From NCBI GenBank assembly GCA_964188305.1, contig OZ076887.1: a DNA stretch of 64,000 bases. One strand, written 5' to 3'. The stretch comes from Podarcis bocagei (taxonomy: Eukaryota). The notes under the pieces were generated by a model. The model saw only the letters and a program-made list of their open reading frames with translations, searched no databases and was not told the origin of the DNA. This document shows positions 4,351 to 16,140 of this stretch, in pieces (position 1 is the stretch's first letter; every line of letters starts with the position of its first letter). Position numbers and translations under genes: made by a program.

Positions 4351-5554
4351 CACTGGTTGCTTCCCCTCTTCAGATTAGTGACGTGGTTAGATGTGAACGC
4401 TTTGAAAACAGTATCTGCTTTCAGTAGTTAAGTCTTCTAGTGAAACCAGGCTGCGCAGCAGCTTACATGGGCAAAAGTGTTTGCTGTGTGTACAGCAGCA
4501 AACATGTCAGATGTGGAGGTCATACATGAATGTTTTTAAATGCTCATATACACCCTGGCCCAATCAAGGATCCCAGTGATGGGTATGAAGGAGTTTAAAG
4601 ATGTGTATAGACATACGTGTTGCTCACCACCACAACCCACACCTTTGCTGTGGGAAGTCCTGAAAATCAAGCTGGCATTCATATAGCAAAAACATGTACA
4701 ATGTAAAGCGTGGTTCAATGGGACTTGAAAGTGCTTGCTTTTGGACGGATCATTTCTTTTCTTTGGCAAAGGATGCAGCACTGAGCTCTGCCAGTTGGGC
4801 AAAGTCTACAGTGAATGAAAAGCACTGCTGTTGAGCCTGCTACTTACAGAATATTTAATAAGAAAAGATTAAGGGAAATGTGATAGCGTTTTTTCTAATA
4901 TGTCATAAAATGAGGCCAATGTGACTCTCTGAAAGAAGTAAAACAAAATTGCCCAGATTCAGCAACCTGTTCTGTGCACAGAATTGCTGATCTGCATACG
5001 GAGCTCCCAGTAGCGGTTTCCCAATTTATTGCAACGGGGAAACAGATAACATGCATGCAATCTTTGTGGTTTGCAAATCTACCAGCTCTATTGCAATAAC
5101 AGCAGCAACTTGTTCGTGAAAGAGGGATGTACACATAGCATGTATACAGATATTTGAATCAGGGTACATAGAAGTTGTGATACATAGGGAGCTGGGCCAT
5201 GGCAAACCATATACCACAATGCGGCTTTGCCCCTCAGGTGCCTCTGAACTGCAAAATGTGCTCCACATCGATTCGACAATAATGAAGAAGTAGCCGGAGT
5301 ATGTGTATTTTCTCCTGTCCATCGTTTTACTCCTGAAAATTCCCAAACTGCACAGTCATCTCAAGTTGAAGCCATTTCAAGATGGCAGAAATACCACAAA
5401 ATCAGTGCCGGATTTACATATAAGCTAAACAAGCTATAGCTTAGGGCCTCACTCTCTTGGGGGCCCCAAAAAAATTTAAAGGAAAAAAAAACTGGATGTG
5501 CATTTATTAAAAATATTTACAAGATAAATAAAATAAAATAAAACCTACATACAG

Positions 5555-5937
5555 TGTGAGATTGGGAAACAATGAAAGCATACAGAAAGGACGTGCCTCA
5601 AACTCAGCCTTGAGAGCTAGACATGTATACAAGATAACACAGTCGCGTACGCCAGAAAGGGCGAGCCAAAGGGTGATGCCCACACTGAGAAGGGAGTAAA
5701 TATGAATAGAGTAGATTGAACAATGTATTAGAAATGTGTTAAACTCTGATAGGTAGATTGTAAGCCAAGCCTCCAAAAGAGGGGCGGCAGTAAGGGATAA
5801 AACTACGGTGCTGAAACCAGATCGGGGCTCTTCGTATCCACGGGTACGAGGGGTCCGCTTTTGCAAACGCGCTAATAAAAGGGTTACCCTTATATTGAAG
5901 TCCTTTGTCAGTTTCTATCCACGGACAACTTCTCACA
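5555..5937 (+). repeat. 5' LTR (383 bp)
   Basis: TGTGAGA...TCTCACA terminal inverted repeat. GC box GGGGCGG 5781-5787, TATA-like GATAAA 5796-5801, AATAAA 5874-5879. I see no differences from the 3' LTR by eye. Confidence 0.96.
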
Positions 5938-5942
5938 ACTTT

Positions 5943-5960
5943 TGGCGCCCAACGTGGGGC
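5943..5960 (+). other. Primer binding site, tRNA-Lys1,2
   Basis: TGGCGCCCAACGTGGGGC, an 18-nt match to the Lys1,2 PBS, 5 nt after the LTR end. Confidence 0.92.
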
Positions 5961-6193
5961 CCTCGACGGGCTGCTCGGGGGGATCCCGGAATCCGGGTAG
6001 GCGCCCCTCCGTCTTTTCGGAGTGACCCGAGCCGGAGTCCACCCGTGACGGTTCACGAGGGCTAAAAGACAGGACTTGATATAGGGGGATAGAGAGAGAG
6101 AACTAGGTCTCATTTTTGGCGGTCCGGGACCGCGAGCACCCAGCGGGGACGCCCGCCTGTTCACTAGTTGCGAGAAGCGACGCTGGACTGTAT

Positions 6194-6202
6194 TGGGTGA
6201 GT
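6194..6202 (+). promoter_or_regulatory. Candidate retroviral major splice donor
   Basis: TGG|GTGAGT (GT at 6197) in the leader upstream of gag. Confidence 0.55.
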
Positions 6203-6413
6203 AGACATGAGAACTTTGTAAACTGTGCTGTGGGACGGGGGTGAGAGACTCGTCTCTTGGATGAAAGAGAGGCTCCATACGGACGCGTGAGTGTGGATCA
6301 GGGTTCGGCCCTGACGGGAGGATTAGCTTGCGGTTCCGTCTCTCCCGCGAGGGAAGCAGCCAGGCGATTCCGTGTGATTGTGTGAGTGAGTGAAATTGGA
6401 GACATTGTAAACC

Positions 6414-6653
6414 ATGGGTAAGGGTCAGAGTAAACGACAGAAGGATTCAAATGGGAAGGGTCCAATTGATCCTAATAGTCCATTAGGACAAATACTGATG
6501 CAATGGGATGAGGACTATCCAAGACAATATACAATAGGCTTGTCAAAAGTGACTATGATTAATTTCTGTAGGGTGGTTTGGCCAAAATACCCTATAGGGC
6601 CGGATGGAATGTATAATTGGAACCCTGAGGGGGAGACTAAGGCTGGATCCTGA
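6414..6653 (+). pseudogene. gag: Truncated gag (matrix region only, 79 aa)
   Basis: MGKGQSK myristoylation motif and PIDPNSPLGQIL..W...MINFCRVVWP...W.PEG, typical of class I MA. Viral similarity ends at ~6633 and the frame stops in host-like DNA. Confidence 0.85.
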
Positions 6654-7833
6654 GCTTGATCAGCTCAGTCACATGACCTCAAAACTCGACATAAATGAAG
6701 GTGGCAGAAATACAGGTGGTGTAACTCAAACTGGATGACGTAATTCTAACTCTATTTTAGATACTCTTTTTTCCTCTGCCTGGCTTAGAACAGCTCAGCC
6801 CGTGGTAGCTCCACTGCTGAATGGAATTTGGAGCCAGTTTATTTAACACAGGCTTAACTTATGCTGGGTTCTTCTGCATAGGATTTCTGCCTAAGAGAGA
6901 ATGGATTGCTCAAGGTCACCAAGTGAGATTTGAACCTGAGTCTGGTCAGTTGCAGTCTATAGCCACCTCTAGAGTCACTGCATCATGCTGGCTGTCTAAA
7001 ACTAGTACAGTGGCACCTCGGGTTAGGAACTTAATTCGTTCCAGAGGTCTGTTCTTAACCTGAAGCGTCTGTAACCTGAAGCGTATGTAACCCAAGGTAC
7101 CACTGTATATAAATATTGCCATAGCCTAGAACAGGCATAGTTGAAGAAAACAGAAATTTGATTTCAATAGACTTCATTTGCAAAATGAAGTGTTTGAGAT
7201 CACCACCTGGTGATAAAAGCAACTATGAATGCTGAAACATAGAATTTGTTTTTGTTAGTTCTAATATTATTCATTCTCAGACAACAGAGAATATATGTTC
7301 TATAACTGAGGGAGGATCCAATAATTTGGATATGTTAGGATGCACTTTCTTTCCACCTAGGTTTGCATAGCACAGTTTGTTTAATCACTACATTGAATAA
7401 AGCTGTATTATTCTATATGTTATTTTTGTTTTAGAAAAGTGGAGGCTTTTGTTTTTAACATTATAAATTATCCCTTGCTTCATTACTATTTCCTCAGAGG
7501 TGCAAATATTGAGGGTTTAGTGATCCGCAAATCAATTTATTGATTAAAAAGGCAGATGATTTATCTACTACAAATATTTATTATGTGAGTCGAATATTTA
7601 CTTCCAGAAAAGAAAGAGGAGGCAGTCTTCAAACCTTTTGTCTTTATATGAACTGGAGCTTTAAAACTGCACAGGGACTTGGAATGTTGCGCTAAATCCC
7701 AAAGTGGTACATTAGTCACCAAAGGTCAACAGATGCAGCCAAAGATCCATGAGAAATTAATTTTTCATGTGGCTTGGCAATTTGTCACATGCAAGCACAG
7801 TTCTTTTATACAGCTATGCATTGGAGGGCACAA
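6635..7833. other. Host-like insert A inside the provirus
   Basis: AT-rich, non-coding and non-viral. Contains a MIR-like remnant (ctcaaggtcacc...gagatttgaacctgagtct, ~6909-6943), a Tc1/mariner MITE, AATAAA at 7396 and a pyrimidine-rich CAG at 7811-7813. Confidence 0.8.
7008..7105. mobile_element. Tc1/mariner MITE (internally deleted) within insert A
   Basis: TA|CAGTGGCACCTCGGGTTA ... TAACCCAAGGTACCACTG|TA. Same family as 52928-53169 in the opposite orientation, with several substitutions. Confidence 0.9.
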
Positions 7834-9138
7834 AGAGAGTGAAGGGAATTTTGGAATTGCAACCCCCTAAGAATAAAACAGACGTAAGAAGGATGTTAGG
7901 GTTGCTGGGGTATTGTAGGCTGTGGATAGATCAATGCGCAAAATTGGTTCAGTTCTTGAATCAAAAACTTGTTGGGGACGAAAAGGTAACGTGGAAACAG
8001 GAGGACAAATTAAAATGGGAGGAGATAAAAAGAACACTGATCGGGGCCCCGGTTTTGGCATTGCCCAATCTCCAGCAACCGTTCCACTTATATGTGACGA
8101 TCAGTTCCCAGACGGCTGTGGGGGTTTTGGCCCAAAAGAGAGGAGGGCGATATCAGCCGGTTGCCTACCTCAGTAAAACCTTGGAACCGGTGGTACGAGC
8201 CTGGCCCACTTGTATCCAGGCAGTGGCAGCTGCAGCTGAACTGGTGGTTGAAAGCAGAAAGTTAACTTTTGGAGGGGCCCTGATAGTTCACAGCCCCCAC
8301 CAGATATCCACTGTAATGACTGGGGCGGCCTTCACCTGGATGACAGATGGTCGCTTGGTAAAATATGAAACCATATTATGGACAAGCCCCAACATCACCC
8401 TGGGGACCGACCGAAATTTAAATCCAGCGGAGTTTTTGATCGGGGAAAGAAAAGAGTGGGAGCCGGATGAGCATGATTGTATGAATACTATACAATTAAT
8501 GTCAAAAGTCCGGGAAGATTTGTCAGAGGTGCCATTGGTAGGGGGAGAAAGATGGTACACTGATGGTTCTAGTTATGTTGAAGAGGGAAGGAGAAAGTCA
8601 GGATATGCTATAGTTAAGGAAGATGGGGAAATTCTCGAAAGCGGAGCTTTGCCGGCAACCTGGTCGGCCCAGAAATGTGAGATTATGGCCCTGGCACGGG
8701 CTCTCGAGTTGGCAAGGGGCTTAGAGGTAACCATATGGACAGACTCCCGCTATGCATGGGGGGGTGGTACATACCTTTGGTAGGACTTGGCGGGACCGGG
8801 GATATATTAAGGCGGATGGAAAGCAAATAGAACACATGGCATTACTAGAAAGACTATTAAATGCCCTCACTGGACCAGAAAAGGTCGCAGTGGTTCATGT
8901 TCCAGCCCACACCAGAGGGACGAGCCCCGAAGAAGTAGGAAATAGGTGGGCTGATTTGAGAGCAAAGGAAGCTGCCAGGGGCACCCCTAGAGCCGCACTG
9001 GTACAACAATATAGTTTGAAAGTACCTGTCCTGACCAAAGCAGATACAGAAAACCTGGTCTTTACCCCCCAAGAGATAGATTACATGAAAAAGGAGGGAT
9101 GGGAACAAAGGGACAATAGATGGGAAACCCCAGAAGGA
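7834..9138 (+). pseudogene. pol: pol fragment: RT thumb/connection, RNase H and linker; one +1 frameshift
   Basis: LGLLGYCRLWI, LALP...PFHLYV, PVAYLSKTL, LNPA, WYTDGSS, SAQKCE, WTDSRY, HVPAH, GNRWAD (all four RNase H acidic residues present). The G7 run at 8758-8764 has one G more than YAWGVVH needs. RT YxDD palm and protease are absent. Confidence 0.93.
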
Positions 9139-9253
9139 CCCCCCCCCTTGGGATTACAATACTACAGAGGGAAGGGCGGCCTTAGAGACTTATCACAGAA
9201 ATGTTTTAGAAGGCATGAGACGGGCAGCGGAAAGGCCTACAAATATGGCGAAA
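9137..9253 (+). pseudogene. gag: Out-of-order gag capsid fragment (39 aa)
   Basis: Frame from 9137 reads DPPPWDYNTTEGRAALETYHRNVLEGMRRAAERPTNMAK, matching the gammaretroviral CA segment P.WDYNT.EGR..L..Y......G...A..RPTN.AK. Not in the supplied ORF track. Confidence 0.88.
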
Positions 9254-9960
9254 TTCTCAAAAATGATTTCTTCTCATCTCTGTTCTTGCTAAAAGACTGT
9301 TGCAGCTAGAAGCGAGTGAACTAACTGTTTCTAACATTCATTCATGAAAGTAACAGGACATCAGTTTGTTTTTTTCCCCCCTTGTGCCAGGCGCTTGGAG
9401 GTAGCTTCAGAGCGTTATCTCTTGGCTCCTATTCCAAGAAGGACACTGCTGCATTCAGCCAGCCACCCTGAACCTCACACTTTCTGGATTTACAGTTCAG
9501 CCACATAAACCCAGAAGGCCAAGAGTTACCCACCCCCCTGCCCCAAAGTATTAACCTGGAAAAGTGACTTTCTTAAAAAGCAAGTGAATGCTTTCTGTGA
9601 ACTTTGTCAAGTTTTTCTTTTTAATGTGTAATTTTACTCTGAAAGGAGCTGCGGCATAGGAATTGATACTTTGAGGAATTTGAAACTTTGCCAGAAGCAA
9701 GGAGTGCATTGTTCTTTCTACAGACACTGGCAAATGAACTGAAATTTGCAACATGGCTTAGAGTTCTGAAACTTAGAGCACACAAATAAGACTTTTGAAA
9801 AATCTCGGCTGGCAAAACTTAACCCAAGGAACAGAACTGTTAACCCCTTGCGAAGTTTCTTGCCATGCTGACCCCTTTGAGTTAATATACCTTATGTGCA
9901 AATGTTATCTATCAATTTGTTCTGTGCAATCGCTGCCGTCTTTGTTATCTCTTCTCTTAA
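9254..9960. other. Host-like insert B inside the provirus
   Basis: Non-viral, intron-like composition. Ends in a polypyrimidine tract plus CAG (ttatctcttctcttaacag, AG at 9962-9963). Confidence 0.78.
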
Positions 9961-10121
9961 CAGGTGGACTTCACAGAGCTACCAGAGAGCATGGGTGGAC
10001 TCACTATCACAGGGTCAAGAAAGCCCCGCAGGACTGGAGGGTAACTGTTGACCCCGATAATCCGCTGAAGGTGACGCTTACCAATCAGGGAACCAGGAAC
10101 CAGAAAGAATCCAAACGCTGA
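9961..10121 (+). pseudogene. pol: Integrase remnants: core start fused to C-terminus
   Basis: 9961-9984 reads QVDFTELP (first catalytic D of the IN core). From ~9981 another frame reads TREHGWTHYHRVKKAP..W......NPLKVTL to the stop at 10119-10121. The intervening IN core is deleted. Confidence 0.85.
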
Positions 10122-10126
10122 CCTCG

Positions 10127-10351
10127 ATGTGTCTATTCTGTACTTGCAAATGTTTTTATGAATGCTGTTGCTGTGCTCATTGCGAATGTTGTGTGTTATG
10201 TGTGCATTGCACTGAGTTGTGTGACATAATTTTCATAGAAGACATAATTATACAATATTGTGCCATCACCCTTGAGGGAGAGGTCAATTGCAGTTTGAGC
10301 TGGACTCCCATGGTAGTGCAAGCTGTAAACCAATTAAGACGGAAGCAATGA
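10127..10351 (+). CDS. Cys-rich 74-aa ORF between pol and env (candidate accessory protein)
   Basis: ATG 5 nt after the pol stop. 16 Cys, 14 of them in the first 32 residues. Its TGA (10349-10351) overlaps the env ATG (10348-10350). Confidence 0.6.
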   Translation: MCLFCTCKCFYECCCCAHCECCVLCVHCTELCDIIFIEDIIIQYCAITLEGEVNCSLSWTPMVVQAVNQLRRKQ

Positions 10352-11322
10352 TAGCAGGGTTCAGCCTCCTGATTATGCTAGGGAGTATCCTGGCCACCGA
10401 AATTCAAGATGAGAGCTGCAGCCAATGTATCCGAGTTACTAAAACTGGGACAGTAATTACACGAACTTTAATGTATTATAATGTTGCCCCCGAGTGTGTA
10501 GTAGAATTAGACCCCTGTGTCCACAATCAGACCCAATATCTTAGATGTAAGACCCAAAAGAATGAAACGGAATGTTATGAGCCCTTAGCGGTGGGACCTA
10601 TTACCTCTAGCATATATGTATATGGATATAAAGGGGGAACAGCAAATAAGGCAAGTGAAAGGGCACATATGTTTTCCCTAGCACAAAATAGGCGGGGATA
10701 TATAGCTCACAACTCCACCAGGGGCACGGAGAAGATACATGTTTGTTTTGATGCATGCATTGCTATTTCAAAGGGACAGGGGCCTAACGACCAAGCTGGA
10801 GTCACTTGTGGGTCATTAAGCTGGGAGAGAGCTTATCTCCAAGAGAATAAGTACCTGTTCCAACAGATTGCCGGTTCCAATATAGGGGCCACAAGGGTGA
10901 CGAACCATTGGTATACAAATGGGGTGAAAGAGATACCCCTATATAGGGGTCCGAAGGGGATAAATATCACCAGGGGAGCGGCTTCGACGGCCTGTGGGTC
11001 AGGACAATGCAATCCTGTATGTCTGTGGGCTAAGGAACTCCCGTCCACTAGACCTAAATATATTCACCTTGGTTTGGGGATAGATGGAAATGGGAAGGAT
11101 CCTTATGGGCACCTAATCATAAAAGTACATACTACTAAGGTCAGCAAACAGCCAATCTCAGTATTTGAGAGCTTTGAAGAAGAAATACAACAATTAAATA
11201 AATTACCTCTTCCCCCAAGAGCTCATAACATGTTTTTGAGTCTAGCTGAGACTATCGCCAAAGAGCTAACTGTGAAAAATTGTTTTGTATGTGGAGGAAC
11301 GAATATGGGAGTTATTATGTGA
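10348..11322 (+). CDS. env: Truncated Env, 324 aa: signal peptide plus N-terminal SU only (ERV3/HERV-I-type)
   Basis: MIAGFSLLIMLGSILA signal peptide; CSQC; TRTLMYY; C.HNQT.Y..C; VFESF...LP.PP...NMFLSLAETIA..L.V.NCFVCGGTNMG, closely paralleling human ERV3-1 Env. Stops 3 codons later. No furin site, ISD or TM domain. Confidence 0.9.
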   Translation: MIAGFSLLIMLGSILATEIQDESCSQCIRVTKTGTVITRTLMYYNVAPECVVELDPCVHNQTQYLRCKTQKNETECYEPLAVGPITSSIYVYGYKGGTANKASERAHMFSLAQNRRGYIAHNSTRGTEKIHVCFDACIAISKGQGPNDQAGVTCGSLSWERAYLQENKYLFQQIAGSNIGATRVTNHWYTNGVKEIPLYRGPKGINITRGAASTACGSGQCNPVCLWAKELPSTRPKYIHLGLGIDGNGKDPYGHLIIKVHTTKVSKQPISVFESFEEEIQQLNKLPLPPRAHNMFLSLAETIAKELTVKNCFVCGGTNMGVIM

Positions 11323-11338
11323 GTTTGAGGCAAGGTAC

Positions 11339-11352
11339 AAAAGAGAGGGGGG
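11339..11352 (+). other. Polypurine tract
   Basis: AAAAGAGAGGGGGG ending 2 nt before the 3' LTR. Confidence 0.92.
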
Positions 11353-11354
11353 AT

Positions 11355-11737
11355 TGTGAGATTGGGAAACAATGAAAGCATACAGAAAGGACGTGCCTCA
11401 AACTCAGCCTTGAGAGCTAGACATGTATACAAGATAACACAGTCGCGTACGCCAGAAAGGGCGAGCCAAAGGGTGATGCCCACACTGAGAAGGGAGTAAA
11501 TATGAATAGAGTAGATTGAACAATGTATTAGAAATGTGTTAAACTCTGATAGGTAGATTGTAAGCCAAGCCTCCAAAAGAGGGGCGGCAGTAAGGGATAA
11601 AACTACGGTGCTGAAACCAGATCGGGGCTCTTCGTATCCACGGGTACGAGGGGTCCGCTTTTGCAAACGCGCTAATAAAAGGGTTACCCTTATATTGAAG
11701 TCCTTTGTCAGTTTCTATCCACGGACAACTTCTCACA
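11355..11737 (+). repeat. 3' LTR (383 bp)
   Basis: Direct repeat of 5555-5937 at an offset of exactly 5800. AATAAA at 11674-11679. Confidence 0.96.
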
Positions 11738-13809
11738 TACAGCAACAGTGTTTTGAGTTGTGTAGGCTCCTGTGATGTAAATAATGGGCCCTGCCTGCTA
11801 GCCTGCTCCCTAAAATATCACTGGTTTGCTCATTTCTAGATATAGGGTGCCTACATTCTGCATGTGCTTTAGCTACCTATTAGGCCCATAAATTACCATA
11901 TAGCATATATTCAACACACAAAAACAGTGACAATTTGTTGTTGACAAAGGGCCGCTGGACATATAAAGGGCCCCATTACCTTCAGTAGCTTAGGGCTTCA
12001 TCAAACCTAAATCTGGCCCTGCACACAATGAGCATAAAACAATTTGCCTATTCTTCCTTCGGGGAAAAGGGATCTTTGCGTGGTATGAACACAAGGGCAG
12101 CCCAAGGCATTTTGGCACCTGAGGCAGACATCCAAATGGCGCCCCCTCCCTGCTTAGGAAGAAGGGATGAGGCGAGATCTACATCAGGAACAAGGTGGTG
12201 GTGGTGGGGAGAGATCGGCATCTGGATCTGCTGCCTCGGTGATTCCTGCTGCCTGAGGCAGTCATCTCAGCTTGTCTTACGGCTGGGACGACCCTATATG
12301 GACACTAACAGTTAAACTCACACATTAGTTGGGGCTTCAGGAGCAGCAGGGACAGTGGCAGAAACCTAAGAAGCAAAATGTACAAAAACAGGAGAAGGGA
12401 AATGGAGAGCCAGGAGTGTCATGTTTAGACATTTGTTTAATGTCTTACTCTTACTAGGTAGAAATAGATTTGACATCACTGTGCCAGTTGTCCTATATCC
12501 CCTGGAGAGCTAATGCAGGTGTGTAAGGAAGGGCATGTTTACTCAAGCTGCATTTTACATTGTGATTTATCTCTTTATTCTTCAAGGAATATTTATTCTT
12601 CAAGAAATATTCTTCAAGGAATATTTTTCAATGTGAGACAAATTAAATGTCAAAAAAGCTAATTTGGCTGCTGTTCATAAATTACATTGCCATTTAAATG
12701 CATTAATTTCATTCTTATTGCTATACTTTCTCGCTTTTCATTGCAGGATTCTGTGAGATAGCCACTGGCTTTATCAATGTTTGTCTTTTATGAATGATTT
12801 AGTACTGTTTTTCTACACATCCCATTGTAAATGGGAAAATAGGATTGTTATGTCCTCTATTATTGCTAAAAGTTTAATTATTACAAATATTTGCCCCAGT
12901 TTTGTCGTAATGAAATGGTGATTTTAAACAGAAGGGAATGGGGTTTTCTATTTAGATTCACTATGAGGTTTTGAATTATTGTGACAATAATGATACCAAG
13001 CGGATATTTTTATGCCCCCAGATTTATACCTTCAGTATTTCATTACTCTTTCTCCAGTATTTCAGTGCTTTGACCCTTCATTTTAGAGAGGCGTTCTAGA
13101 GAAGTATATTTATAGGGGCAAGCAATAATGGTTTCTTCCTGGAACTCTGAACAATCTTGGCATATTTCACACATCTTCAGAAAATGTTGTCAGTTCCCTT
13201 CATTTATCCCTTTCCTGTACATTTCTAAAGGTAGGATAGGATAAGTAAATGGAAACAACTCGACAACCCAAAACAGGTGTGTATACTTGACCTAGGATTT
13301 GCTAAAGATTTGGTTAACCAAGTATCTTCATGTGTTGCCATTGCGATGATACTATCTATATGTATATCACCTGCTTCTGTTGGAAGAGAGGTGTAGATTA
13401 CCCCTCATATGTTGAATGCACTTCTGGCTGCAGTGGCCACCTGGGTAAAGAAGGATCCAGGAGCAGACCTAGACCAGGTATCTCTTCCTTCAGAAGGGAG
13501 TTCAGCCCTGTCCTCACTGAAGTATCTCCTGGTCCTGGACATAGAATCATAGAATTACAGAGTTGGAAAGGACCCTAAGGATCATTTTGATGTTTTATTA
13601 TGTTTTATACCTGTTGGAAGCCACCCAGAGTGGCTGGGGTAACCCAGACAGATGGGCAGGGTACAAATAATAAAATTATTATTATAATTATTACTCCTAT
13701 CCCCATCAATGCAAGAATATATAGCTGCCCCATACAAGGACCAAACCTGCATCCTTAGTATTATCAGCCATCTGAGCTATCCAGGCTTGGAAACCTCTAC
13801 CTGTGTAAT

Positions 13810-15904: not shown

Positions 15905-16140
15905 NNNNNNNNNNNNNNNNNNNNNNNNNNNNNNNNNNNNNNNNNNNNNNNNNNNNNNNNNNNNNNNNNNNNNNNNNNNNNNNNNNNNNNNNNNNNNNNN
16001 NNNNNNNNNNNNNNNNNNNNNNNNNNNNNNNNNNNNNNNNNNNNNNNNNNNNNNNNNNNNNNNNNNNNNNNNNNNNNNNNNNNNNNNNNNNNNNNNNNNN
16101 NNNNNNNNNNNNNNNNNNNNNNNNNNNNNNNNNNNNNNNN
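15905..16140. other. Assembly gap (236 N)
   Basis: Run of N. Confidence 1.

Follow-up and report, generated by a model that had tools for sequence, protein, structure and literature searches.

RESULTS

A mosaic defective provirus carries a truncated env ORF

The window, i.e. the whole 64,000-nt stretch of Podarcis bocagei DNA that we analysed (contig OZ076887.1 of assembly GCA_964188305.1), contains an uninterrupted env ORF inside a 6183-bp (6.2-kb) defective provirus at 5555-11737, whose features are collected in Table 1. The primer-binding site is presumably of the tRNA-Lys type, and the insertion point lies inside a high-copy host repeat. The same kind of repeat hosts the sister provirus L017 (window flanks 5403-5554 and 11738-12021). 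No nameable host gene was found in the surroundings of the provirus, where one masked stretch about 4 kb downstream (15905-16140) may mark a host exon.

Table 1. Features of the provirus and of its env ORF (positions in the window)
Feature	Position	Strand	Remark
Target-site duplication TACAG	5550..5554 and 11738..11742		5 bp; 4 bp in sister copies
5' LTR	5555..5937	+	383 bp, TG...CA; 0 mismatches in 383 vs 3' LTR
Primer-binding site	5943..5960	+
Candidate splice donor TGG/GTGAGT	6194..6202	+	in leader; motif scan only
gag remnant	6414..6653	+	79 aa, cut by host capture
Captured host DNA	6630..7856	+	in place of most of gag, pro, RT
338-aa ORF	7767..8783	+	host-derived ATG into RT-connection/RNase H fragment; internal control
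Second-ERV-family segment	9127..9971	+	845 bp, in place of much of integrase
Upstream ORF	9991..10044	+	17 codons, strong-context ATG; only in two copies with open env
Cys-rich ORF	10127..10351	+	74 aa, stop overlapping env ATG; putative accessory ORF
Truncated env ORF	10348..11322	+	324 aa, no interruption
SU CXXC motif (CFVC)	11281..11292	+	TM partner CX7CC gone
env deletion junction	11306..11311	+	on TGGGA microhomology; common to five proviruses
Polypurine tract (PPT)	11339..11354	+	in residual cytoplasmic-tail sequence
3' LTR	11355..11737	+

The captured host DNA is 97-98% identical to a single source locus in the same genome, G000 (G000:C6:6.708 Mb, 6707854-6709198), with short shared sequence at both junctions, and no host gene was recognised at this source. 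The captured ~1.2 kb has been copied to five sites, and a small repeat embedded in it is ~120 bp shorter in the captured version. At its end, the second-family segment has an acceptor-like site (polypyrimidine-CAG, at 9963), which resembles one in the integrase region of a full-length relative, L019, a region that is deleted here. L019 itself (L019:449-9377; G000:C5:7.697-7.706 Mb) has identical LTRs but lacks a target-site duplication, and its gag, pol and env are all broken. The second family is organised as a ~410-aa gag frame, a noncoding segment and a ~370-385-aa env frame (L046-L060); its segment gave 40 scored matches, and no long pol frame was seen in the 3.7-kb loci examined.

The provirus is a mosaic of host capture, second-family segment and recombinant env patch (see below). 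It belongs to a non-autonomous, presumably helper-dependent ERV family, in which LTRs, primer-binding site, PPT and target-site duplication are kept, gag and pol are destroyed and the insertions share lesions, and mobilisation would take place in trans. An earlier note on this DNA had described env as the only long viral ORF left with its own start; the 338-aa ORF, which takes its ATG from host DNA, is a second long ORF with a start codon.

A Cys-rich ORF stands directly before env in 7/7 proviruses of the sub-family, with an early stop in one copy; its identity falls to 62% in the most distant relative, L019, and it is missing from the sister sub-family. No Pfam match was obtained for it. In the literature outside most subscription journals, we found no paper describing such an ORF, nor one describing a truncated lacertid Env.

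The env ORF encodes an RBD-only stub

The encoded protein consists of a signal peptide (~1-16), an N-terminal beta domain (~22-82, putative RBD-R1), RBD-C (~83-267) and linker helices, followed by CXXC and three out-of-frame residues. Translation and motif scan confirmed the uninterrupted 324-aa frame with CSQC (residue 24), CFVC (residue 312) and four sequons (NQT60, NET72, NST122 and NIT206) that had been noticed earlier. The signal peptide claimed along with them was assigned from hydropathy and position only: strong hydrophobicity is seen in residues 1-19 and in no other stretch of this length (Kyte-Doolittle 1.94, against 0.82 for the runner-up), and these residues coincide in position with the hydrophobic N-terminus of L019.

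Comparison with L019 also agreed with the earlier description of a cut after GGTNMG and of a deletion reaching nearly to the PPT. The deletion is bounded by two TGGGA microhomologies, which are 1137 nt apart in L019, and beyond it only the end of the cytoplasmic tail (out of frame) and the PPT remain. Since the deleted ends are not GT-AG, splicing was ruled out as the origin of the deletion. The furin site and TM are lost, and so are the 163-164 SU residues past GGTNMG, which belong to the SU C-domain. Thus, the ORF is an RBD-only stub with about two thirds of SU, rather than the whole SU implied by the label 'SU-only' in the earlier note.

Env lineage and predicted fold

Among named sequences, the window Env has its homologues in the ERV3-1-like Envs from Zootoca vivipara (72%), from snakes and from a turtle; fragments from Podarcis muralis match it at 88 and 100% over short overlaps, and no Pfam env family was matched in the window ORF. 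The EnvP(b)1 RBD (6W5Y) was matched both in sequence (phmmer E 8.3e-4) and in structure (Foldseek E 4e-6). An AlphaFold2 model of the 324-aa Env, built from 65 aligned sequences, reached a mean pLDDT of 84.1, and its RBD-C aligned with the RBDs of EnvP(b)1 (6W5Y; Z 10.6, rmsd 6.9, 145 aligned), FeLV-B (1LCS; Z 10.2, rmsd 3.7, 153 aligned) and MLV (Z 9.1, rmsd 3.5, 149 aligned), the next unrelated row scoring 4.7, far under these three matches. The structure prediction suggested in the earlier note thus returned matches to the FeLV, MLV and EnvP(b)1 RBDs, and RBD-C is predicted to be complete and is confidently modelled. Residues 22-82, modelled within the whole protein, form a five-strand, Cys-rich unit with pLDDT >90, for which no structural match was listed. 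A search of BFVD folds added a single significant, unnamed match.

In the available text of Hötzel (10.1101/2024.03.17.585361), EnvR group 4 (ERV3-1/HERV-R type) is modelled with two binding domains, RBD-R1 and then RBD-C, and is marked by CX7CC in TM and by a CXXC lying ~175 residues away from the C-terminus of SU and ~260 from the mature N-terminus. CX7CC is present in the TM of the full-length sister L008 (the window ORF has no TM), and in the full-length relatives L008 and L019 CXXC precedes the cleavage site by 173-174 residues. By these two features and its Pb(1)-like RBD-C, the window Env belongs with the ERV3/EnvR-type Envs, although its CXXC is ~295 residues from the mature N-terminus. 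It also differs from group 4 in that the window copy is without C-domain and TM and that its sub-family has the Cys-rich ORF before env. Lizard group-4 sequences may already be listed in the figures or supplements of the same paper.

Sister copies of the deletion

The check for a recurring breakpoint that the earlier note had proposed showed that the same env junction is common to five proviruses of G000, which are 95-100% identical. In four of them the two LTRs have no differences; in the fifth they differ by 1 base and a 2-base gap. The env products of the five copies are 324, 324, 239, 228 and 245 aa, and the pol-fragment ORFs, in the same order, 338, 338, 136, 136 and 136 aa. Three of the five env frames are shifted, one by a 16-base deletion and two within a single G run (7 and 8 G vs 6 in an open copy), and these two G-run frameshifts may be assembly errors. 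The pol-fragment ORF is broken in the same three copies by one shared G-run indel.

Four DNA runs were compared at the junction: X1, which may be the sample of the window itself, and X6 bridge it by at least 31 letters and X4 by ~24, and X2 stops there. The bridging contig of X6 (organism E) carries 2- and 10-base env deletions, and the Logan protein P0002 appears to leave the frame where these deletions lie. Accumulation of stops in sister copies, which the earlier note had named as evidence against function, is therefore largely observed, with three of five copies frameshifted and two more deletions in the organism E contig.

Truncations cluster near the SU CXXC

This env type is present in 12 G000 proviruses. 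Three of them have uninterrupted env frames of 714-715 aa and LTR pairs 0-2 bases apart (one with a 23-base gap); their Envs are 78-79% identical in protein, and they could be targets of a soluble blocker. The other nine go back to five primary env lesions that arose independently: the window deletion (five copies, 324 aa), separate deletions in L006 (326 aa) and L010 (323 aa), a plain premature stop that leaves 322 aa in L009, and a TM frameshift in L007/L019 (546 aa). Four of these five lesions end the protein within about 18 codons of the SU CXXC, and an open RBD-only frame is kept in 5/12 proviruses. Under a uniform model, such clustering would arise by chance with a probability of 3e-4; a count of 9-10 lesions, with the secondary ones among them, gives 0.007-0.011, in both cases for an interval picked post hoc.

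The L010 deletion breaks at a direct repeat of 10 nt. Codon 313 ranks second to third among the G4Hunter peaks in three sister envs, but it is outside the top six in L019, to which the window copy is more closely related. Microhomology and G-rich sequence thus account only partly for the clustering. The 5' part of env is kept in all 12 env-bearing proviruses, and querying with the 3' half turned up no close copy retaining only that part. We saw no sign that ERV3-like ORFs in general end at CXXC: C-terminal ends are widely spread among 50/93 motif-bearing stored proteins, many of which are contig fragments. Annotated ERV3-like ORFs that end soon after CFVC occur in a caecilian (P0028/XP_033799274.1, 348 aa) and a cobra (P0004/KAG8132560.1, 337 aa). 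A distantly related env family shows a large recent expansion, with about 100 scored loci (L104-L127 and more) and open frames of ~484 aa; its size suggests that it may correspond to the Podarcis EnvR group 1 that appears in the available text of 10.1101/2024.03.17.585361.

Low pN/pS is not specific to env

In simulations excluding indels, the env frame survived neutrally with a probability of 0.85 at 4 substitutions and 0.67 at 10, in agreement with the earlier caveat that in a young insertion an open frame alone proves no selection. The env pN/pS was 0.10-0.25 in 4/6 comparisons, from which L006 and L007 were left out owing to misalignment near the breakpoints and the N-terminus. Compared with L016 and L017, differences lie in codons 56-232 (7.9-8.3%), with 0-1 differences in codons 1-55 and 233-324; codons 56-232 are a recombinant patch, from which the low pN/pS originates. 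Moreover, the ratio was 0.22-0.32 in the pol fragment. In the gag remnant (79 aa), 2-4 changes were synonymous and 0-1 non-synonymous. Because the pol and gag remnants are low as well, the signal was probably inherited from helper genomes, and with these controls and the recombinant patch we rejected the idea that pN/pS demonstrates selection acting on the stub. The dN/dS comparison proposed earlier thus gave a signal that is not env-specific, and selection on the window copy is unsupported.

Transcription and translation

Raw RNA reads were taken from three runs of a related organism (organism C; 6-12% of each run, tissues unspecified). Read depth over 10474-11121 of env was zero in all three sampled runs, which is a weak test. 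One run had a depth of 0.47 at 10258-10473 and another a mean depth of 3.64 at 11122-11337, the latter from few reads, and the second-family segment was covered. No leader-to-env splice joint was among the joints listed for these runs. The run search listed no RNA holder and the contigs of run X16 no env piece, neither of which bears on expression. The RNA-seq check suggested in the earlier note has thus yielded reads at the edges of env and none over most of it. From the likely acceptor at 9963 to the env start there are eight upstream ATGs, which would weigh against env translation; the first, in strong context, is new and restricted to the two copies with open env.

DISCUSSION

The env stub in the window is probably a passenger in a young defective provirus family. 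This reading is likely because three of five sister copies have a broken frame, and the frame in the window would be open because this copy is very young. The stub is the first 60% of an envelope gene of the ERV3/EnvR type, what remained after a microhomology deletion in a defective provirus family with five copies in this genome. The short shared sequence at the junctions suggests that the deletions and captures arose through template switching of reverse transcriptase. The element presumably spreads on Gag, Pol and Env given in trans by full-length relatives, and with such supply it would need no env of its own. If translated, the stub is predicted to fold as a receptor-binding module and is likely to be secreted, so that incidental receptor blocking would be possible. 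Counting against a passenger are the clustering of truncations, the G-run shifts that are perhaps assembly errors, the acceptor-like site that is retained although the native region has been deleted, and the few reads at 11122-11337 in one RNA run.

A rival reading is that the stub is a soluble blocker of the Refrex-1/FeLIX kind, from which the host gains, so that proviruses cut at the boundary between RBD and C-domain are retained again and again as long as full-length relatives are active. We regard this as unlikely. Four independent truncations (324, 326, 323 and 322 aa) and the open RBD-only frames in 5/12 proviruses argue for it, and the premature stop of L009 is beyond explanation by template switching; the complete, confidently modelled RBD-C, the three young uninterrupted env copies in the genome and the similar RBD-only ORFs in caecilian and cobra are also consistent with it. 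FeLIX loci are less than 700,000 years old and still restrict infection (available text of PMC11019853); youth therefore does not exclude function. The architecture, with signal peptide, modelled RBD and no TM, fits the earlier note's proposal, whereas the frame is gone in three of five deletion copies and in organism E, pN/pS is not env-specific, the breakpoint region is mutation-prone (10-nt direct repeat, G4Hunter peak at codon 313), C-terminal ends spread widely among stored proteins and most of env is without reads in the sampled organism C runs. Alternatively, clustering would reflect a cis-acting RNA in 5' env that the element needs, or host tolerance, in which clean-folding harmless stubs are kept and others purged. 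The retention of 5' env in 12/12 proviruses, with no close 3'-only copy found, and the spread of frameshifted copies that still retain env DNA speak for such a reading, which is nevertheless improbable. A cis element leaves the premature stop of L009 unexplained, and in a contig of run X16 the family leader and the start of gag are joined to second-family segment and LTR with no env piece listed, which suggests that env DNA is dispensable (contigs show presence only).

A role of the soluble RBD as an entry cofactor or adhesin, as FeLIX for FeLV-T, or as a suppressyn-like modulator of host cell fusion, is very improbable. It would draw on reports, in the available texts, that soluble RBD-C can complement Env in trans (10.1101/2024.03.17.585361) and that a soluble RBD can aid entry (PMC9967133). 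We identified no partner Env with a defective RBD, the locus is of very recent origin and bears no sign of conservation, and the close homologues are Podarcis-like lacertid. Podarcis is an egg-laying genus, and the placental analogy is therefore weak.

The interest of the stub rests mainly on the convergent truncations. As a passenger, it would be part of an ordinary defective provirus, yet one that clearly illustrates a mosaic ERV, assembled out of host sequence and parts of two virus families. Should selection lie behind the clustered truncations, they would represent the earliest stage of soluble-Env restriction in a squamate, and a natural RBD-only protein would be a probe for the EnvR-group receptor and for the roles of the two predicted binding domains. 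In its full form, the idea is that a still-spreading lacertid ERV3-type group shed soluble dual-RBD Env stubs at least four times at one domain boundary, which the host keeps as secreted blockers; this is unlikely, and if true it would be Refrex-1/FeLIX-style restriction at its very start, seen in a squamate and in a different Env lineage.

Among known systems, the window Env has the predicted architecture of a soluble truncated Env, i.e. signal peptide and complete RBD without TM. Refrex-1 (feline ERV-DC7/DC16) and the primate truncated Envs of 230-439 aa, described as secreted and antiviral in the available text of PMC9245640, share with it the signal peptide, N-terminal RBD, missing TM and length range; it differs from Refrex-1 by lineage (EnvR group, putative dual RBD), by its origin through deletion and by its end just past CXXC. 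FeLIX, from endogenous FeLV, likewise comes from young defective proviruses as a soluble RBD-C beside related full-length Envs, and the RBD-C fold modelled here matches 1LCS. FeLIX is expressed, secreted and active according to the available text of PMC11019853, whereas the window Env is known from sequence and model, with three of five sister copies broken. With syncytins, including that of Mabuya lizards, the common ground is an ERV env in a squamate genome. A syncytin identity was ruled out, since a full-length fusogenic Env with furin site and TM is absent, and the link to cell fusion drawn in the earlier note found no support: the entire fusion apparatus (furin site, fusion peptide, ISD and TM) is missing, and the locus is a young multi-copy provirus, not a conserved single-copy gene. 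The stub would work, at most, like Refrex-1 or FeLIX.
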